A stretch of 64,000 bases of DNA from Escherichia phage ime. A program made the position numbers and the translations under genes. Of this stretch, positions 2,061-42,502 are shown piece by piece. The stretch is taken from the sequence record MN850576.1; one strand, 5' to 3'. The notes under the pieces are model-generated. The model saw only the letters and a list, made by a program, of their open reading frames with translations, searched no databases and was not told the DNA's origin. Within the stretch, counting starts at the first letter, position 1. Every line of letters starts with the position of its first letter.

Positions 2061-3110
2061 ATGAATTTAACACCTCGCAGCACCATGGTACACGGCATGA
2101 AAGAAAAACAGAACGGTTTCGAACCTATGAGTAATAAAATGTTTGGTATGCCGGGCGGTATCATGGAAACATACAGCTACCCAACACCTGTTGTTGACCA
2201 CGTTCTTTATATCGACGATTTGGAGGACCTGCAGGATCATATGTCTCGTCTGCAGACGATCCGTATGGCTCAGCCGGAAGAAAGCATTCGTGTGATCATC
2301 AATAGCCCTGGTGGTTGCGTGCACATTGCAATGGCCTATCTGCAGGCATTCCGCGAGTCTCAGGCAAGCGTTGTTGCACATGCTGAAGGGATGTGCTGCT
2401 CTGCTGGAACAATCTTATGGCTTGGTTGCAAAGAACGTACTGTGGCTCCGGACACAGAATTTATGTTCCACTACTATCAAGGTGGCACTTATGGTAACGG
2501 TGTTAACATGAATACTCAGGTCAGCTACTGGAAAAAACGTTTTGAACACCTGATCGAAAAATACTACGGTGGGGTGCTGACAGAAGATGAGATAGCATCC
2601 ATCACAGCTGGTGGCGAAGTGTGGTTGGACGGAGAAGAGTTGGCAGCACGCACTGGAGCTATTATTCTGGATGAAGGCAACATACAACGCATCCAGAACG
2701 GACAAAAACCGAAAAAGCTTCTGGCAAAAGGTGATGAAGAAGGCGTGTTAGGTGAAGCAGGTCTTCCGGAGATTCATCAGTGCACATCTTTAGATGAGTT
2801 AGTTCATGCTGTTGAATCTGCAAAAGCGGGTGGTTCGAAAGGTGATGTTCACACTGTGTTCCTGAATCTGCAGATGGAAAGTGGCGAGACCGTCCGAATT
2901 GCCCTGGGTGAGATTACTTCAGAAGATCTGCAGAGATTCTCTGTCGTTGAACTTCAGGATATTCTGTCTCAATTGAAGACTACTCTGAACGGCGGTGAAG
3001 AGGTTAAGGTGAAAGATAAGACTCGCAAGCGTCTTGTGGACAATATTATTAAAACAGCAAAAGAGCTCAATGAAAAAATCCTGGGTGCAGGAATTGTCGA
3101 AGAAGCTTAA
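2061..3110 (+). CDS. ClpP-family (S14) serine peptidase with C-terminal extension
   Basis: ClpP-like core INSPGG...AEGMCCSAG...FMFHY. Confidence 0.65.
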   Translation: MNLTPRSTMVHGMKEKQNGFEPMSNKMFGMPGGIMETYSYPTPVVDHVLYIDDLEDLQDHMSRLQTIRMAQPEESIRVIINSPGGCVHIAMAYLQAFRESQASVVAHAEGMCCSAGTILWLGCKERTVAPDTEFMFHYYQGGTYGNGVNMNTQVSYWKKRFEHLIEKYYGGVLTEDEIASITAGGEVWLDGEELAARTGAIILDEGNIQRIQNGQKPKKLLAKGDEEGVLGEAGLPEIHQCTSLDELVHAVESAKAGGSKGDVHTVFLNLQMESGETVRIALGEITSEDLQRFSVVELQDILSQLKTTLNGGEEVKVKDKTRKRLVDNIIKTAKELNEKILGAGIVEEA

Positions 3111-9601: not shown

Positions 9602-9919
9602 ATGCAAATTGAAATCACTGGCAACGTAGAAATCACTGAAGGTATGGTGTCTTTCATTTCCCACAAAATGTCTAAGCTGGAGCGTTTGCATCCCTCTGCC
9701 AACTATGCACGTGTGAGTGTAAAAGTTGAAAATGATCACCAGGAAGTTATGGCGTTCATTTTTGACAATTCTGGAAAAGAAGTTATTGCCAAAGCTAAAG
9801 GCAGTGATGCTTACGAGGCAACTGACCGTATGGTAGATGTTGCAGCACGTCAACTGGCTAAATGCGGTGGAAAGAAAGGTAAGGGGAAAGGCAAAGTAAA
9901 GATTGACTTTGGAGAATGA
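9602..9919 (+). CDS. hpf: ribosome hibernation promoting factor / RaiA-family protein (short form)
   Basis: MQIEITGNVEITEGM...KLERL...ARQLAK closely parallels E. coli HPF MQLNITGNNVEITEAL...KLEQY...ARQLTK (recalled). Confidence 0.75.
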   Translation: MQIEITGNVEITEGMVSFISHKMSKLERLHPSANYARVSVKVENDHQEVMAFIFDNSGKEVIAKAKGSDAYEATDRMVDVAARQLAKCGGKKGKGKGKVKIDFGE

Positions 9920-9928
9920 GGTGCTACA

Positions 9929-10030
9929 ATGGGTGTGATCAAGAAATTAGTCCCAAATGTAGAGATTGCATGCTTTGAAATTATGTTTGCAATCGCAGTT
10001 GTAGTTAATGTGTTAGGTTACGGCTATTAA
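9929..10030 (+). CDS. small hydrophobic protein (33 aa), below track cutoff
   Basis: ATG 9929 with GGAGAATGAGGTG RBS; hand-translated. Confidence 0.3.
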   Translation: MGVIKKLVPNVEIACFEIMFAIAVVVNVLGYGY

Positions 10031-32266: not shown

Positions 32267-32328
32267 TTTTCAGATCTCCTTATACAAAAATGCCCCACCC
32301 TTTCGGGCAGGGCTATGTTAACTAGATG

Positions 32329-33555
32329 TTAGAATGGGATGTCATCATCAAAGGCGTACTGTGCTGGATTCTGATCCATCGGGTCATCTTCCTCGTCATT
32401 TACAGGAGGAGCGTCTACAGTATTTTGCTGTGAAGCAGCTTCCTGTTTGGCAGCTTGAGGTTCTTGATGGTCAGTGGACCCAGCACCGTTCTTGATCCAA
32501 TCGTACAACGGCTCAGCCAGATTAGTCAAGACATCTTTTGCTTCTGCAGTAATTGCCGCTGCAAAATCATCAACTTTCGTTTTCTTGTCAATACGGCGAC
32601 AAGCGTTCAACACCGCATTACCGACACTGGCACCTACTTCATCTTCAGTTCGGTTGGTGGCTTGAGCATACTCTTTCTTAAGCTCAATAGTGACTACGTG
32701 CAGTGTTTTAGCCACACCTAGTGGGTCGTCTACCTTAAACCCGCGATCCAGGATGATTTGCAACGCATTGATGCTATGTCCCGTCTCCACACCAATAGGG
32801 TCGTAAGAGGATTTACGCTTGCCACCAGAGCCTTGAGTGCCGTTCTCTGCCTTAGGTGGATAGGCTTTGAAACCACTGATAATGTTTCCGGTGTCTTTGT
32901 CAACAATGGCTGCAACACGACCACCTACCACCAGGTCTTTAAGCTGCTCATCAGTAACAACCATGGCACCTTCGCCAATCTTGTGGTCATTAACAGTAAC
33001 CACGTTGCCAACAATCTGAGTCACATCGCCATAGATGCGTAAAACGTCCTGATTGGCATTCTGCTGAGGTTTCTGCTTCTGGCCTTGTGATTGTGCACCT
33101 TGTTGCTGTTTTTGCTGCTGAGTCGCTGCTGGAGCCTCTCCTGCACCCAGCTTGACCATCTTAGCCAGTGAGCCTTTGTAATAGGTCTTACCGTTATGCT
33201 CGTTTGCCTTCAAAGGGATATTTACGATCCATCCCGGCGTTACGGTTTCCCACTTGTCATCAATCTTAACAGAGACAGAGTCTTGATGACCAGGTTTAAG
33301 CAGCTTATCACCCATACTGATCCAAACTTCTTCACCACCTTGAAGCAGGTTATCAGAGGAATCCAGTTCAGAAATCAGTAAAGAGATGGTGTGGCTGGAT
33401 TCAATTTTCTTACCTTGCCACACAGTGGTTTTAATACCTGTTGTAGGATCAGCACCTTTGATAGGTTTGATGCTGACACGTTTAATCATGCCGTGAGCCA
33501 GTAAAACAGTTTCACGCGGATTCATCGGGTTAGCGAATTGTTGAATAACGCTCAT
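32329..33555 (-). CDS. putative ssDNA-binding/replisome protein with host-SSB-like acidic C-terminal tail
   Basis: C-terminus ...AFDDDIPF matches the E. coli SSB tail; Q-rich linker. Confidence 0.55.
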   Translation of the reverse strand: MSVIQQFANPMNPRETVLLAHGMIKRVSIKPIKGADPTTGIKTTVWQGKKIESSHTISLLISELDSSDNLLQGGEEVWISMGDKLLKPGHQDSVSVKIDDKWETVTPGWIVNIPLKANEHNGKTYYKGSLAKMVKLGAGEAPAATQQQKQQQGAQSQGQKQKPQQNANQDVLRIYGDVTQIVGNVVTVNDHKIGEGAMVVTDEQLKDLVVGGRVAAIVDKDTGNIISGFKAYPPKAENGTQGSGGKRKSSYDPIGVETGHSINALQIILDRGFKVDDPLGVAKTLHVVTIELKKEYAQATNRTEDEVGASVGNAVLNACRRIDKKTKVDDFAAAITAEAKDVLTNLAEPLYDWIKNGAGSTDHQEPQAAKQEAASQQNTVDAPPVNDEEDDPMDQNPAQYAFDDDIPF

Positions 33556-33920
33556 TATTTGTCTCCTTGTTCTTCGTTAGTGTTTGCCGTGTGTGCAAAC
33601 CCTGCTTGAATTAATTTGTCCTGAACTTGAGCCAACAGGCCCATTGCAAAACTTGTGGTCCCAGAGAGGGCCATCAACATATCTCGTTGTTGAGCTACCC
33701 AACCTAAGGCATAGTCCAAACGACGATATTTTTCTTCTTCACGCAGAGCCTGAAATAATTGTTCAGCCTCCGGTTGTTGTGTGAGCTCCTGAAGTCTTCC
33801 CATGAAAGAAGAAAGCACTAGCAAAAGAGACACTTGATCTTTACTTAACCCTAAGAAAAATTCTTGAGGTTGTTCTTGCTCGTTCATCGCAACCGACGCT
33901 TGATCGTTCATTTGTTCCAT
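33555..33920 (-). CDS. hypothetical protein
   Basis: ORF track; ATGA overlap with downstream gene. Confidence 0.5.
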   Translation of the reverse strand: MEQMNDQASVAMNEQEQPQEFFLGLSKDQVSLLLVLSSFMGRLQELTQQPEAEQLFQALREEEKYRRLDYALGWVAQQRDMLMALSGTTSFAMGLLAQVQDKLIQAGFAHTANTNEEQGDK

Positions 33921-36745: not shown

Positions 36746-37099
36746 TTAGTGACAATCACCCCAATTACGACCACACAAGTATTCACCTGTGATCTGGAAC
36801 GGGACTCCCATCATTTTAGAAGCTTGCCAGAAGCAATGCACCACCATTTCACCCACAGGGCTCCAGATAAGTTCAAGCTTTCCGTCATCGTTCAGGATAG
36901 GATCGTACACCGTGTTTCCGTCTCTGTCAACCACTTCGTTTCCGTTTTCATCCTTGCGTGCCTTTTTGTACTTATGACCGTCAAACACATGAAGTTTGGC
37001 CTCCTGCTCTGCCTTAAATGCTTCCAATTCTTCAATTGTGTCGAAGGTGTACACAGTCTTATACTTAGGCGTGTCAGGGACCTGAAGTTGGTACTCATC
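36746..37099 (-). CDS. DNA polymerase (family A) C-terminal segment: putative exon 2 or C-terminal fragment
   Basis: Begins DEYQLQV directly after a TTG pseudo-start and ends ...NWGDCH like the conserved Pol A C-terminal His; no independent RBS. Confidence 0.55.
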   Translation of the reverse strand, partial: DEYQLQVPDTPKYKTVYTFDTIEELEAFKAEQEAKLHVFDGHKYKKARKDENGNEVVDRDGNTVYDPILNDDGKLELIWSPVGEMVVHCFWQASKMMGVPFQITGEYLCGRNWGDCH

Positions 37100-38001
37100 C
37101 AATAGTTCAGGTAGGTCGTTAAGCTACCCCGCACCATTACGTGCACAGCCATACGGTTTCCTGTATGGATCGGACTATCTCACTACCTTGTTACCAAGGC
37201 ACCTCTCATTTCGACCGCACTTGCTGGCCTACTCTACTCGCTTCTTCACACCAAACTATGTTGGAGCTATGCTTTCGATAGTCTCTGAACGTTACTACCA
37301 GGTGTAGTTTTTAGAGATATGTTTCCACTGTCTTCTTTGCTTTATGGCTCTGACCGTCTCATAAGGATACCCAAGATCCCTAATCTCACATTGTCGTAGA
37401 CCACTCTGCAACAGTTCACAAATCTCCATTACCTCATCCTCGGTCAGCACAGCGTTGGCATTATACTCACCGACTGGCCTTACTCTGAGCTCATTATCGT
37501 AGGCGTGTTTGATATTTTCACCGGGGGTAGTCCATTCCAGGTTCCAGTATGCATTGTTGTACTTATTTCCATCCTTATGGTTCACCCATGTGAGCTTTTC
37601 AGGATCAGGGTTCGGTACAAAGCATTCAGCAACCAAGTGGTGGACACCTTTTGTGCACTGCCTTCCATCGATGAGCATGGTTACGCAAAGGTAACCTCTA
37701 CCATTATCAAAACAAAACATTGTTGTATGATCACGTTTCGATAAAGGTATTGTTCCATCATCAAACACGATATACCCGTGATAATCAGCTGATCTAGCCA
37801 TTTTAACTACACCCCTTTAGTCTTCGCTGCGGATTAGCATATTGAGTTTTTACCATGTTTAGGTGTAAAAGTCAACTTAGCCTTCCCGTCAATTAAAGAG
37901 GTTTTCGACGTGCATCACTGCACGAAGCCACAATGTTATTTATGGTAATAAATAATACGACGAACACCTTCATCGTACCACCCACGCTTCACCATTTGGT
38001 G
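37100..38001 (-). mobile_element. ~900-bp insertion in DNA polymerase gene (putative group I intron carrying an HNH homing endonuclease gene)
   Basis: Interrupts Pol A at motif C (H|DE); stop-rich flanks of 134 and 193 nt around the HNH ORF; last nucleotide G before exon 2. Confidence 0.45.
37295..37801 (-). CDS. HNH homing endonuclease
   Basis: HHLVAECFVPNP...VNHKDGNKYNNAYWNLEWTTPGEN HNH signature. Confidence 0.75.
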   Translation of the reverse strand: MARSADYHGYIVFDDGTIPLSKRDHTTMFCFDNGRGYLCVTMLIDGRQCTKGVHHLVAECFVPNPDPEKLTWVNHKDGNKYNNAYWNLEWTTPGENIKHAYDNELRVRPVGEYNANAVLTEDEVMEICELLQSGLRQCEIRDLGYPYETVRAIKQRRQWKHISKNYTW

Positions 38002-40365
38002 GTGCATGAGTATCCCAACTAAGTCACACAACGATGCACCACCATTTTGTTGGTATGCATTAAGTAAAGAGTGTTTAGATCGGGTCCAGATAGCATGACC
38101 ATCAAAAGAGTAGATAAACTTCTTACCCGTTGCTTCCCAGAATTTCTCCAGATCCTCTTTACGCCCTTTAAGACCAGGGTTGGCATCCCAAAGCGCATCG
38201 ATTACCCTTTGCCCCAACTCTGGGGAGATATCCAGCATGTCTGCAACTTTATCTTTTTGTGCCCCATACATAACCCCGTACGTGATAGGTTTACCGTCGT
38301 TACGAGACACCTCTCTACCTGCTACTTTCGTATATGCCTCAGCATTGTTTTGGTGGGCATCCCCGTTACTTACAACATCGTAATACAGGCCGTTGTCGAA
38401 CTCAAAGGCACCCCAAGCCCCGATAAGCTGCTCTAAGTTGGACCCGTCAATACCGATCTCAAAGTATCCTGGAGGAACACCCCACAGACTGCGCATCTCT
38501 TTACCCATAACCACTTTAGGAGATGGTTTAGGCATGTTTGCACAAATACTGTGTTTCTGTCGGGAAGTGTTTGTTAATCCAGAGCTTTTAGCAGGAAGCT
38601 TATGGTCAATCTTCAAACGTGGGTGATTAAGAAGACCAGTATCAACCTTATCCTCCTTGATTGGATCAAGGACCGATCTGCGGTTTCGCAATGATAACCA
38701 CAAGACGATATCTTTAGCCATCTCTCCGTTCAATTTTTCAAGATTCGGACATAGGTGTCCAAACGTATCTTTCAGTTGCGGAGAAGTAATAAGTGCCCTG
38801 GCTTTTCTGCGTATTTTCCCGAACACTTCCTTTTTAATCCTTTCGGAGTTAGGAAAGCTTCGGAACTTGTGCACTGTTGTCTGAAACTTAGCATCAGTTT
38901 TGTTCCAGAAGTTGATAATTAGGTCACAATACTCTGACTCTAAAAGCTCGTCCATGTATGCATATACTCGTGCATCAACATCTGCATCAGGTAGAGCTTT
39001 CTTCTTGCTGTCCTTAGTTACATCCTTAGTTCTCCACATTGTCGGAAGCCAACCAGCACTGATCAGGTATCGCTTAATGTCGTCCTGGTTGCTGATTTTC
39101 ATAGGTATCTTGCAGTCAGGCATTCGCTTCTGCTGCAGATCACTTATTGCCTGATCCATCAGCTCTTTAGGTAAAGGTTGTGGTGTGGAGGTGCCCTTAA
39201 TATAACCTCTCAAGAAATCAGCCATCTTGTCGGGGTCTTTGCAGCCCATCTCTTCGCACCATTTTATCCCCATCTTGCTGACATCTCCTGTGGAGGTAAA
39301 TGCTCGCTTAGGCGGGGCTTTGAATTCTAAAGCGCTCATGTCTACAGGATAGCCAAGCTTATCTTTTAACCATTTCCAACCATTATTGGAGATTGTCCCA
39401 TCTTGGTTAAACGGCTTTTCAGGGAACTTGGGCCGCTGAGACATTGACAACTCTTTTAAAGGAAGTTGAGGTTCAACACGATCAGCGATCTCTTTCATCC
39501 ACGCATCGCAACGGTCACGTAAAGCAATAGCTCCATCTATGTCGAAGTATACACCCTGACGGGCCTGCAGCTCCATCAGGAAGTGCTGCAGCATGCCTCG
39601 ACGTAATGCGTTCTTCCAGGTGATCTTCTTGAACCCTTTCGGCTTCTCTTTGGCTGGATCGTACATAAAGTTCTGCATGTCAGATTTGCCGTAGAATACA
39701 CCTTTTGATTCCGCTACCAGCTCTTTCCAGAGCAGCTCCTGGATGATAACGTCCTCGAATACACGATCCACATACTTCCACAACGGAAGATCGCGCCAGT
39801 CATCAATTTGAACTTTCTGGTTACCAAGGGCGTAGCCCCATGCCATAAGGCCGTGAGGACCAACAGGCTGCATTTTCTTAGTAACCGGGTTGAATACAGA
39901 GTCCGGACAACCTTTTGGTAAAGGGCGATCAGGCCACAAGATTCTGCTCATCGCCAACGTATCAAACAGGTTAACCTGGTGGTCGTTGATAGTCCCCATG
40001 CATTTAGGATCACGGAACATATCAAAATGAATACCGGATAATCTTTCCATCAGCATAAAGTCATAACTGTAGCAGTTATGGCAGTTCAAAGCTGTTGGTG
40101 ACCAGTCGGAATTGCCTGTAAGCCAACCTTCCAACTCCGAAAAATCTGCTATGCGAACTTCAAAATCTTTATGAAGAGTTTTCTTTGCCAGAATAAAGTT
40201 CTTAGCCTTCTCTATATCCTCTTCGGAGTAGTGTGTGCGGTCATTTAGAGGAAGGAACAGCATAAAACGGTTCTTATTCAGCTCTTTAAACAGGCCGCAG
40301 TGATAATAAAGATCTGGATCTTCCAGCAAACCGGATGACTCAAAGTCGAACGACCACATGCTCAT
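38002..40365 (-). CDS. DNA polymerase, family A (exon 1: 3'-5' exonuclease domain and polymerase motifs A and B)
   Basis: Exo I FDFES; motif A IDGSNLEQL; motif B KPITYGVMYG; frame reads ...GILMH then runs on 21 codons into the insertion to stop at 37936; TAAGGAGA RBS. Confidence 0.8.
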
Positions 40366-40423: not shown

Positions 40424-42502
40424 TTAAAAAGGTGTTTCATCATCCTCAAAACCAGGGACCGGATCAGAGGATGGATCATCGTATTGGAGGTCTTCCTGCG
40501 TGTCAATAGGCTTGACAGTGGGTGTTACAACCTTATCAGCCACAACCTTGCCCATAGGTGTTTCTACAACTGCATGCTCCTGATCCTCAAACATAGCCTG
40601 AGGTCTCCAAACAACCTCCCCACCTTCTCCGTCTGTAAACATCTGCATTTCTTTGTCCCAGTACCAATTACTGGCATCATGGAACTTACCTGTATGCGGA
40701 TCCATAACTAAAGTGTCAGCAATACCTAAAGTTTTTGCTGGACGGTTTTTAAGACCTACCAGACGGACACGTCCACGAGAACGATCCACCATTTCTTCGG
40801 CCTCGACACCTATGACTACCCAACTCAACTGTTCAAGCCCAGCCGATCCTCGCAAATTCTCTTTTCGCACAGGATACCAGAAAGGTAATGGGTTACCATC
40901 CTTGTCCTTAGGGGGCACAATCTCTGTACGTTTGAGGTGAGCGATCACCAAGATAAACACGTTAAACTGCTTACAAAACGCAGCCAGTTGGGTCATAGCC
41001 ATGTCCAGTTCTTTTCGCTCATCCTTAACATTAAGCCCTGAAATTACCATGGACAGGTGATCCAGCACAATATAACGACAATGGTACAGGCAAACCATTT
41101 GCTTAAGCTTGGTAATCAACTCGTCCACTGGAATAGACCCGAAATGTTTGAACACTTTGATTTTTCCAGCTTTTGCCCATGATTGGTGAATCTCTGCGTG
41201 TTCTTGATCAGTTAAAAACTGGCTAGGATCTTCAACAAACTCTTTAACATCAAACCCTAACTGGTTTGCATACAAGGAGTTAATTGCTTCCTCTGGGTCC
41301 TCCTCAAGATGGATCATACATAGACGATCATCCTCTTCATAGTCATCAGCCTTCGGGCATGTTGGGTCCATTAGGTATCTTGCAATACAATGTTCCAGTT
41401 TTTTAGCTACGGTTGTTTTACCGCCACCTGATGGGCCTGTAAGCATTACAAGTGTCCCCTTGTGCAAGCCTTTTAACATTTTTTGCAGTTTTGGGAACTC
41501 TGCACTGATATCTACCCCGTTGGAAGTCTTTTTCCGCAAAGACTCGATAGAGAAGTCTTCTAAGTCCGACACAGCATCAGGCACGTATTTAACAGGATGC
41601 CGGAACATGTTGACAATATCTTCCAGCTTTTTAGCCTTCAGCATGTCACGGATATCTTTTACCCCGTCAGGGTCATTTACTTCACCAGGGTATTCTACGT
41701 GGTAAACGTTATCAGCCATCAAAAATGCTGCGATATTGTGCGTGGCCTCAACACCTTTAATGACGTGTTTTTGCTTCTCTACCTCGTTGGCTGCATCGTT
41801 ATCCATTGCCAGCACAACTGTTCCATAGCTACGGATAAACTTCTCATTGTTTGCAAAAGTATCTACTGCGTTTGCACATCCACAGTTAATTCCAACAAAA
41901 GGTAGGCAGGGTTTTCCTGCCAGATCACCACCGTTGATAACTGCATCGATCCCGTCCTGGACCTCTTTAGCCCACTGTTTCACCTTTGCCGGGGCTTTAG
42001 CATTGGTGAGAATCCCTTTTACTTGTATCTGATATGCAGCCTGCCATGCTGCAATAACATCGCCTTCCCCCTCACAAACGTTAATCTGCTTACGGTTGTT
42101 AGAAGATGCACACAGCTTTTGCCCAAACATTTGGGAGTTAGCCTTTACGATCCCAACCGTCGTAAAGTGCCCACGTTGCTCTTTGGGGATCGTCCAGTCA
42201 CGCTTTTTGAAACCGGACAGATTCCCGTAGCGGTCGTAATATGGGAAATATGTTGCAGTAACTGTCACACCGTCTTCTTGGGACAATGCTGATCGCACAC
42301 CAAAATATTGTGCAGCCATCAGACCGATATTTTGTTGTGGGACAGGGACAATTTTAGTATTTTCTAAAACAGTCTCTACAGTTTCAACTTCTTTTTCATC
42401 ACGATAGTCTCGTTTCACACTTCCCCCACTTTTATACTTAGTTGCTTTCGGGTTTGGCTCACCGAAACGGTTGTATGCAGATGCCATAAATTTACTTCCC
42501 AT
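40424..42502 (-). CDS. bifunctional primase-helicase (T7 gp4-like: TOPRIM primase plus DnaB-family helicase)
   Basis: TOPRIM-like CEGEGD/AMDNDAANE; Walker A GPSGGGKT; acidic C-terminus ...FEDDETPF. Confidence 0.85.
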   Translation of the reverse strand: MGSKFMASAYNRFGEPNPKATKYKSGGSVKRDYRDEKEVETVETVLENTKIVPVPQQNIGLMAAQYFGVRSALSQEDGVTVTATYFPYYDRYGNLSGFKKRDWTIPKEQRGHFTTVGIVKANSQMFGQKLCASSNNRKQINVCEGEGDVIAAWQAAYQIQVKGILTNAKAPAKVKQWAKEVQDGIDAVINGGDLAGKPCLPFVGINCGCANAVDTFANNEKFIRSYGTVVLAMDNDAANEVEKQKHVIKGVEATHNIAAFLMADNVYHVEYPGEVNDPDGVKDIRDMLKAKKLEDIVNMFRHPVKYVPDAVSDLEDFSIESLRKKTSNGVDISAEFPKLQKMLKGLHKGTLVMLTGPSGGGKTTVAKKLEHCIARYLMDPTCPKADDYEEDDRLCMIHLEEDPEEAINSLYANQLGFDVKEFVEDPSQFLTDQEHAEIHQSWAKAGKIKVFKHFGSIPVDELITKLKQMVCLYHCRYIVLDHLSMVISGLNVKDERKELDMAMTQLAAFCKQFNVFILVIAHLKRTEIVPPKDKDGNPLPFWYPVRKENLRGSAGLEQLSWVVIGVEAEEMVDRSRGRVRLVGLKNRPAKTLGIADTLVMDPHTGKFHDASNWYWDKEMQMFTDGEGGEVVWRPQAMFEDQEHAVVETPMGKVVADKVVTPTVKPIDTQEDLQYDDPSSDPVPGFEDDETPF

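Follow-up and report, generated by a model that had tools for sequence, protein, structure and literature searches.

We propose that the 408-aa protein encoded on the minus strand at positions 32329-33555 of the window (the whole 64,000-nucleotide stretch of Escherichia phage ime, MN850576.1, that was analysed) is the replicative SSB of this phage, that its C-terminal tip docks host SSB-interacting proteins and probably also the phage polymerase, and that the altered host ssDNA processing is what the defence system DRT10 senses. We put the probability of this reading at roughly 0.65; ssDNA binding, oligomerisation, and every contact between the tip and a partner are predicted. It draws on high-confidence predicted OB folds that match SSBs, PriB, and RPA, on a layout that mirrors bacterial SSB, and on a tip that is the most conserved part of the protein and follows the bacterial consensus. 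The kept gene order, the finding of no canonical SSB in our searches, the SSB labels given by some depositors, and the data on the ortholog Bas52_0087, DRT10, and SbcB dosage in a recent preprint point in the same direction.

An SSB-like protein with the ending FDDDIPF is not new, having been described through the ortholog Bas52_0087. Three points are new here and make up the value added beyond the preprint: the conservation of the tip throughout the family, a related tail on the phage helicase, and a peptide that extends many phage SSBs past the tip. None of the three is mentioned in its accessible part (bioRxiv 10.64898/2026.04.29.721553). In E. coli, more than 17 genome-maintenance enzymes find ssDNA via the SSB tip hub (PMC7913777). 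An exact copy of that tip on a phage protein offers a handle on how large lytic phages connect to or disturb the hub and on why defence systems, DRT10 among them, monitor phage SSBs, and the sister tail on the phage helicase yields partner predictions that are open to testing.

The C-terminal tip and its conservation

The gene begins with an ATG at 33553-33555 and ends with a TAA at 32329-32331; the coordinates and the length of 408 aa given in the original prediction were exact, and the strand is minus. The protein terminates in ...NPAQYAFDDDIPF directly before the stop codon, and its tip, AFDDDIPF (residues 401-408), is encoded at 32332-32355. E. coli SSB finishes with the 15 residues PSNEPPMDFDDDIPF (PMC7913777), with the hexapeptide DDDIPF at the end (PMC5872125). 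The shared DDDIPF ending that had been noticed from the sequence is thus borne out by comparison with a host-type SSB, and the match in fact covers the last seven residues, FDDDIPF. Given the amino-acid composition of the window ORFs, DDDIPF would arise by chance at one given C-terminus with a probability of 2.7e-8, and 5.9e-6 such endings are expected across the 217 window ORFs of at least 50 aa; composition together with the conservation described below rules out a chance origin of the tip. Downstream of the TAA there are further in-frame stops and then, directly 3' of the gene on the same strand, a terminator-like hairpin with a T-run (32292-32313). These features indicate that F408 is the true C-terminus in the window allele and rule out a hidden read-through extension.

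The window belongs to an rV5-like Vequintavirus. Escherichia phage rV5_ev146 carries exactly the same DNA for the SSB-like gene (100% identity). In 115 phage records, which are almost exclusively E. coli Vequintavirus, the identity is 91-99%, and in most annotated records the product is labelled "hypothetical protein." It is worth mentioning that 16 to 21 records named "Campylobacter phage" (MG0656xx, stated host Campylobacter jejuni) carry an SSB-like gene at least 96% identical to that of E. coli rV5-like phages, and the host labels of these records look doubtful.

Beyond these close relatives, the SSB-like protein matches PHROG 4477 over residues 1-408 (E 4.5e-173). A word-indexed search recovered 56 homologs, down to 29% identity, in which P407 and F408 are invariant, and an exhaustive profile search of 1.84 billion representatives returned 249 at E <=0.001 and 170 at E <=1e-10. 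Most family members are 260-300 aa long, corresponding to the first OB domain, the helical bundle, and the tail. Across 133 diverse representatives from the profile search, conservation within the protein is highest over the last eight residues, where P407 and F408 reach 94%. When the ends of 150 representatives were compared, 113 closed with PF, 106 with [ILVM]PF, 40 with DDD[ILV]PF, 17 with FDDDIPF, and nine with MDFDDDIPF, and a single one had its last 13 residues identical to those of E. coli SSB. The family profile, searched against all PDB sequences, gave two bacterial SSBs as its top matches, through the tail alone (E 0.013 and 0.04). By tblastn, 358 phage records contain the family. 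They belong to the Vequintavirinae, phi92/Justusliebigvirus, and Phapecoctavirus groups and include phages of Klebsiella, Salmonella, Cronobacter, Pectobacterium, and Erwinia and one Pseudomonas phage; a few depositors label the protein or its distant homologs as SSB.

Judged from these alignments, the tip is under strong selection. Its family-wide conservation and the PDB profile matches together show that it defines the family, is maintained by selection, and is a copy of the bacterial SSB-Ct, rather than a peculiarity of rV5. The SSB-type tip is a hallmark of a whole, otherwise unannotated SSB family.

Domain layout and genomic setting

The predicted structure divides the protein into several parts. 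OB-fold domain 1 (residues 1-138; 33142-33555), found in nearly all family members, is predicted to be an SSB/PriB-like OB fold. It is followed by a Q-rich linker (residues 139-169; 33049-33141; 13 Q in 31 residues) that is disordered according to its composition and a pLDDT below 50 in the full model, and by OB-fold domain 2 (residues 170-233; 32857-33048), which has a minimal b1-b2-b3-a-b4-b5 topology and is found in only about 25% of family representatives. The best structural matches of these two high-confidence predicted OB folds are true SSBs, PriB, and RPA. Residues 251-356 (32488-32805) form a conserved four-helix bundle (pLDDT 87-95) with conserved D252, G255, G259, H260, N263, G308, and G312 and no clear structural analogue. 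An acidic disordered linker (residues 357-400; 32356-32487; pLDDT about 31-33) leads to the tip, and the net charge of residues 357-408 is -12. SSB-type features found together in the protein are therefore a predicted SSB/PriB-type OB fold, a disordered linker, and an acidic tip of the form D-D-D-[IL]-P-F.

Sequence searches gave a different picture of the N-terminal region, in which a search for an OB fold had been suggested: the fold is upheld by the predicted structure and not by the Pfam search, in which the SSB-like protein had no match above threshold. A phmmer search of PDB sequences likewise gave no match, and 25 family members compared with Pfam had no SSB-family (PF00436) or other relevant match; the sole matches at E <=0.1 among them, to Trypan_PARP (0.0034) and MS_channel_2nd (0.016) in one member each, are unrelated. 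The resemblance to host SSB by sequence is thus confined to the tail. E. coli SSB (Pfam PF00436) shares the layout of OB fold, low-complexity linker, and acidic tip, but it has no sequence similarity to the phage protein outside the tail, is 178 rather than 408 aa long, and lacks the second OB fold and the four-helix bundle. The combination of an OB fold and a helical domain could also be read as that of a RecO-like protein that mediates recombination or anneals strands, in which case it would not be a replicative SSB. We consider this very improbable and disfavour it, since the RecO similarity is still present when the OB domain alone is searched, and since RecO binds the SSB tip and does not carry one.

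The reading as a replicative SSB is in keeping with the position of the gene. It stands at the distal end of a same-strand run that encodes a Dda/Pif1-like helicase, methyltransferases, a gp4-like primase-helicase, a family-A polymerase, small ORFs, and a 121-aa ORF, and the order of primase-helicase, PolA, small ORFs, and SSB-like gene holds in homologs of about 30% identity. No other SSB is listed in the fully annotated rV5-type genome JLBYU08, and tblastn with canonical SSB OB-domain queries at E <=1 gave no match in the window or in the JLBYU08 genome.

The 121-aa ORF (PHROG 7310; 33555-33920, minus strand) lies immediately upstream, and its last base is the first base of the SSB-like ATG, a one-base overlap that suggests translational coupling. 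This ORF has no Pfam match. Syntenic homologs with 22-28% identity are found at three loci with long-form SSB-like proteins 33-38% identical to that of the window, and none was found next to short-form family members at the loci examined. The ORF is therefore ruled out as a universal partner, being homologous and syntenic only beside long-form members, and we found no support for the "putative SSB" label that one depositor gave it. At a divergent short-form locus (L013), an ORF at 9837-10001 that overlaps the start of the SSB-like gene encodes a T7 Gp5.9-like protein, which is another T7-type feature of these replication modules; T7 gp5.9 is reported to target RecBCD.

The family-A DNA polymerase (PHROG 17, Pfam DNA_pol_A; 36746-40365, minus strand) is split into two parts, 37936-40365 and 36746-37102. 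A tblastn search with the uninterrupted polymerase of Bas55 placed the split at residue 808/809, where an 842-bp insertion (37100-37941) interrupts what is one 925-aa ORF in phages Bas55 and Murica. The insertion carries a 168-aa HNH-like ORF (37295-37801), whose match to HNH_3 is weak (E 7.9e-5) and does not reach the Pfam cutoff. Rfam searches at gathering thresholds detected no group I intron in the insertion and no other match in the window.

Proposed partners of the tip and the link to DRT10

We envisage a protein that starts with an SSB/PriB-like OB fold and a Q-rich linker, in some members has a second OB fold, and continues with a four-helix bundle particular to the family, an acidic disordered linker, and the SSB-type tip. 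Its OB domain or domains would coat ssDNA at a T7-type replisome composed of the gp4-like primase-helicase and the family-A polymerase. The helical bundle may serve self-association or partner contact. The free ...DDDIPF-COOH tip would act as a working copy of the bacterial SSB-Ct, docking in the pockets that bind host SSB on ExoI/SbcB, chi, PriA, RecQ, and others, so that host enzymes might be recruited or titrated on phage ssDNA, and it probably also touches the phage's own polymerase. The perturbed host ssDNA metabolism would then be what DRT10 senses. The original prediction had held that the tip could recruit or compete for host SSB-interacting enzymes; the part of it that concerns a genuine SSB-type tip stands and had been published earlier as a hypothesis, and every tip-partner contact in it is inferred.

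The closest link to experiment comes from phage RudolfGeigy/Bas52 (MZ501102), whose protein Bas52_0087 (QXV84166.1) is identical to the window protein at 405 of 408 residues (99.3%), occupies the same genomic position, and shares FDDDIPF, D252, and Y351; the three substitutions (A369T, S375P, and A401S) all lie in the disordered tail. In a preprint of 30 April 2026, Bas52_0087 is reported as an SSB-like trigger of the reverse-transcriptase defence DRT10 (UG17), with the FDDDIPF motif noted (10.64898/2026.04.29.721553). Bas52 escape mutants carried D252V and Y351C, both in the helical domain of Bas52_0087, and the protein was genetically required for DRT10 activation; expressed alone, it was neither toxic to E. 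coli nor sufficient for triggering (10.64898/2026.04.29.721553). The same text reports that SbcB overexpression weakens the defence, SbcB dosage thus modulating it, and it proposes that Bas52_0087 interferes with SbcB/ExoI or other host factors that process ssDNA; the structure predicted there likewise has two OB folds and a disordered C-terminus, and the oligomerisation interface is only inferred (10.64898/2026.04.29.721553). In the window protein, both escape sites are present and fall within the four-helix bundle, and D252 is conserved in 82% of the SSB-like family. With an ortholog this similar in the preprint, the observation and the core interpretation of the original prediction were already in the literature, as a hypothesis.

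An exact host copy at the C-terminus might also be expected of a decoy, a protein that is not a working SSB and whose tip sequesters or inhibits SSB-interacting host enzymes such as ExoI, RecQ, PriA, or Ung, so that the phage can take over the host or counter its defences. A decoy, however, would need neither two predicted OB folds nor a conserved location closing the run of replication genes, no other SSB was found in the phage, and the lack of toxicity of Bas52_0087 in the preprint also speaks against it (10.64898/2026.04.29.721553). We therefore hold a pure decoy to be improbable.

A second acidic tail in the window bears on which partners the tip may have. The 692-aa primase-helicase (PHROG 239; Pfam DnaB_C and AAA_25; 40424-42502, minus strand) ends in ...GFEDDETPF, with its last eight codons at 40427-40450. 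An acidic run with an aromatic C-terminus is found in four of the 217 window ORFs, and just two of these, the SSB-like protein and the primase-helicase, end in PF. Among 120 primase-helicase homologs, which reach down to about 42% identity and include those of Vibrio phages, 112 have the acidic run and PF end. Many homologs (P0209-P0211 and P0250-P0298) are about 975-1025 aa long, compared with about 670-690 aa, with a query coverage of 52-81%; an intein, an extra domain, or some other large insertion may be present in them.

The paired tails recall phage T7, whose OB-fold SSB, gp2.5, has an acidic, disordered tail with a terminal Phe and is accompanied by a primase-helicase with a similar tail and by a family-A polymerase. 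The front basic patch of the T7 polymerase is where the acidic tail of gp2.5 anchors, the gp4 tail is mimicked by a DTDF peptide, and gp2.5 has an essential Phe at its C-terminus (PMC12339929 and its references). Similarly, the phage-encoded SSB of HK620 uses its C-terminal residues for a protein partner, the last six being needed for the annealase Sak4 (PMC5928155). HK620 SSB is, however, a distant SSB homolog with a diverged tip, NDYPPF (PMC5928155); the protein of the window lies outside that family by sequence and yet has the exact host-type tip. From the ...FEDDETPF ending and its conservation, the T7-type replisome, and these precedents, one could argue that the tip works inside the phage, the SSB and helicase tails both docking on the polymerase at its basic patches and thereby coupling the replisome, with the identity to the host tip secondary or incidental. 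The family-A polymerase is in any case a candidate phage-internal partner of the acidic tails.

As a full account of the tip, such a phage-internal role seems rather unlikely to us, because the two kinds of tail differ in several respects. At position -3, 94% of SSB-like proteins share I/L/V with bacterial SSBs, whereas 97% of the helicases have S/T/E/C, and up to 9-13 residues are copied from host SSB, beyond what a generic acidic tail would need. At the most divergent loci, moreover, the helicase lacks the acidic-PF tail whereas the SSB-like protein still ends in DDDIPF, so the helicase tail and the SSB-like tip do not strictly go together there. The phage-internal and host-docking roles are not mutually exclusive. 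We conclude that the tail of the SSB-like protein is a true SSB-Ct mimic, which may in addition serve a T7-like phage-internal contact.

A peptide beyond the tip in relatives

In about one-fifth of close homologs, the protein continues for 14-16 residues beyond PF, as in ...DDIPFAPVGLQYGKSRIHAL. The added peptide follows directly after a ...DDIPF or ...TPF tip, with the consensus A-P-I-G-L-Q-Y-[PGRA]-x-[LI]-[LF]-x-[CYH]-[MCI]. It is present in the SSB-like homologs P0001, P0006, P0021, P0044, P0048, P0051, P0060, and P0091 and in two primase-helicase homologs (P0217 and P0221), and it is absent from the window allele. We found no mention of this motif in the literature searched. Its Q-Y-x-x-[LI]-[LF] core bears what we take to be a loose likeness to clamp-binding motifs.

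A scan of IMG/VR for DNA encoding PFAP[IVM]GLQY identified 48 loci (L014-L061). The carriers comprise 29 canonical SSBs, with tails such as ...EPPMDFDDDIPFAPIGLQYPALLNCM, about seven members of the SSB-like family, and three proteins of 691 aa with tails matching that of the extension-bearing helicase homolog P0221; the remainder consists of further small proteins that end in SSB-like tails. Across the 48 loci, synonymous sites are free to vary, and three alleles (L008, L009, and L011) have the extension with no overlapping gene downstream, which together show that selection acts on the peptide itself. At another locus (L007), the RBS and ATG of an inserted HNH-like gene fall within the extension codons. 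The extension as a mere by-product of homing-endonuclease insertion is nevertheless ruled out by the three alleles without an overlapping gene and by the free synonymous variation.

The peptide places the tip Phe internally and would bury its terminal carboxylate; it may therefore cap or switch the tail or extend its range of partners. More broadly, we tentatively raise the idea, which we would sooner bet against than for, that large rV5/phi92-type myoviruses have a T7-style "two-tail" replisome with a host-type SSB-Ct linking it to the host SSB interactome, and that, separately, the post-tip peptide is a cap, a switch, or a second docking motif. Elsewhere in the window, a 349-aa ORF (2061-3110, plus strand) encodes a protease domain of the ClpP type (Pfam CLP_protease, E 3.5e-12), which could be relevant if the tails or the post-tip extensions should turn out to undergo processing or degradation.

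In addition, some rV5-like phages have a homing-endonuclease-like gene immediately 3' of the SSB-like gene, at the loci L006 (Bas58, MZ501073; 3736-4314) and L007 (4244-4867). One of these downstream genes is annotated as "putative homing endonuclease," and the other is a Cys-rich 207-aa ORF with no Pfam match. In both alleles, the last ~30 nt of the SSB-like gene have diverged, which suggests that the conserved tip-coding DNA is a homing target.
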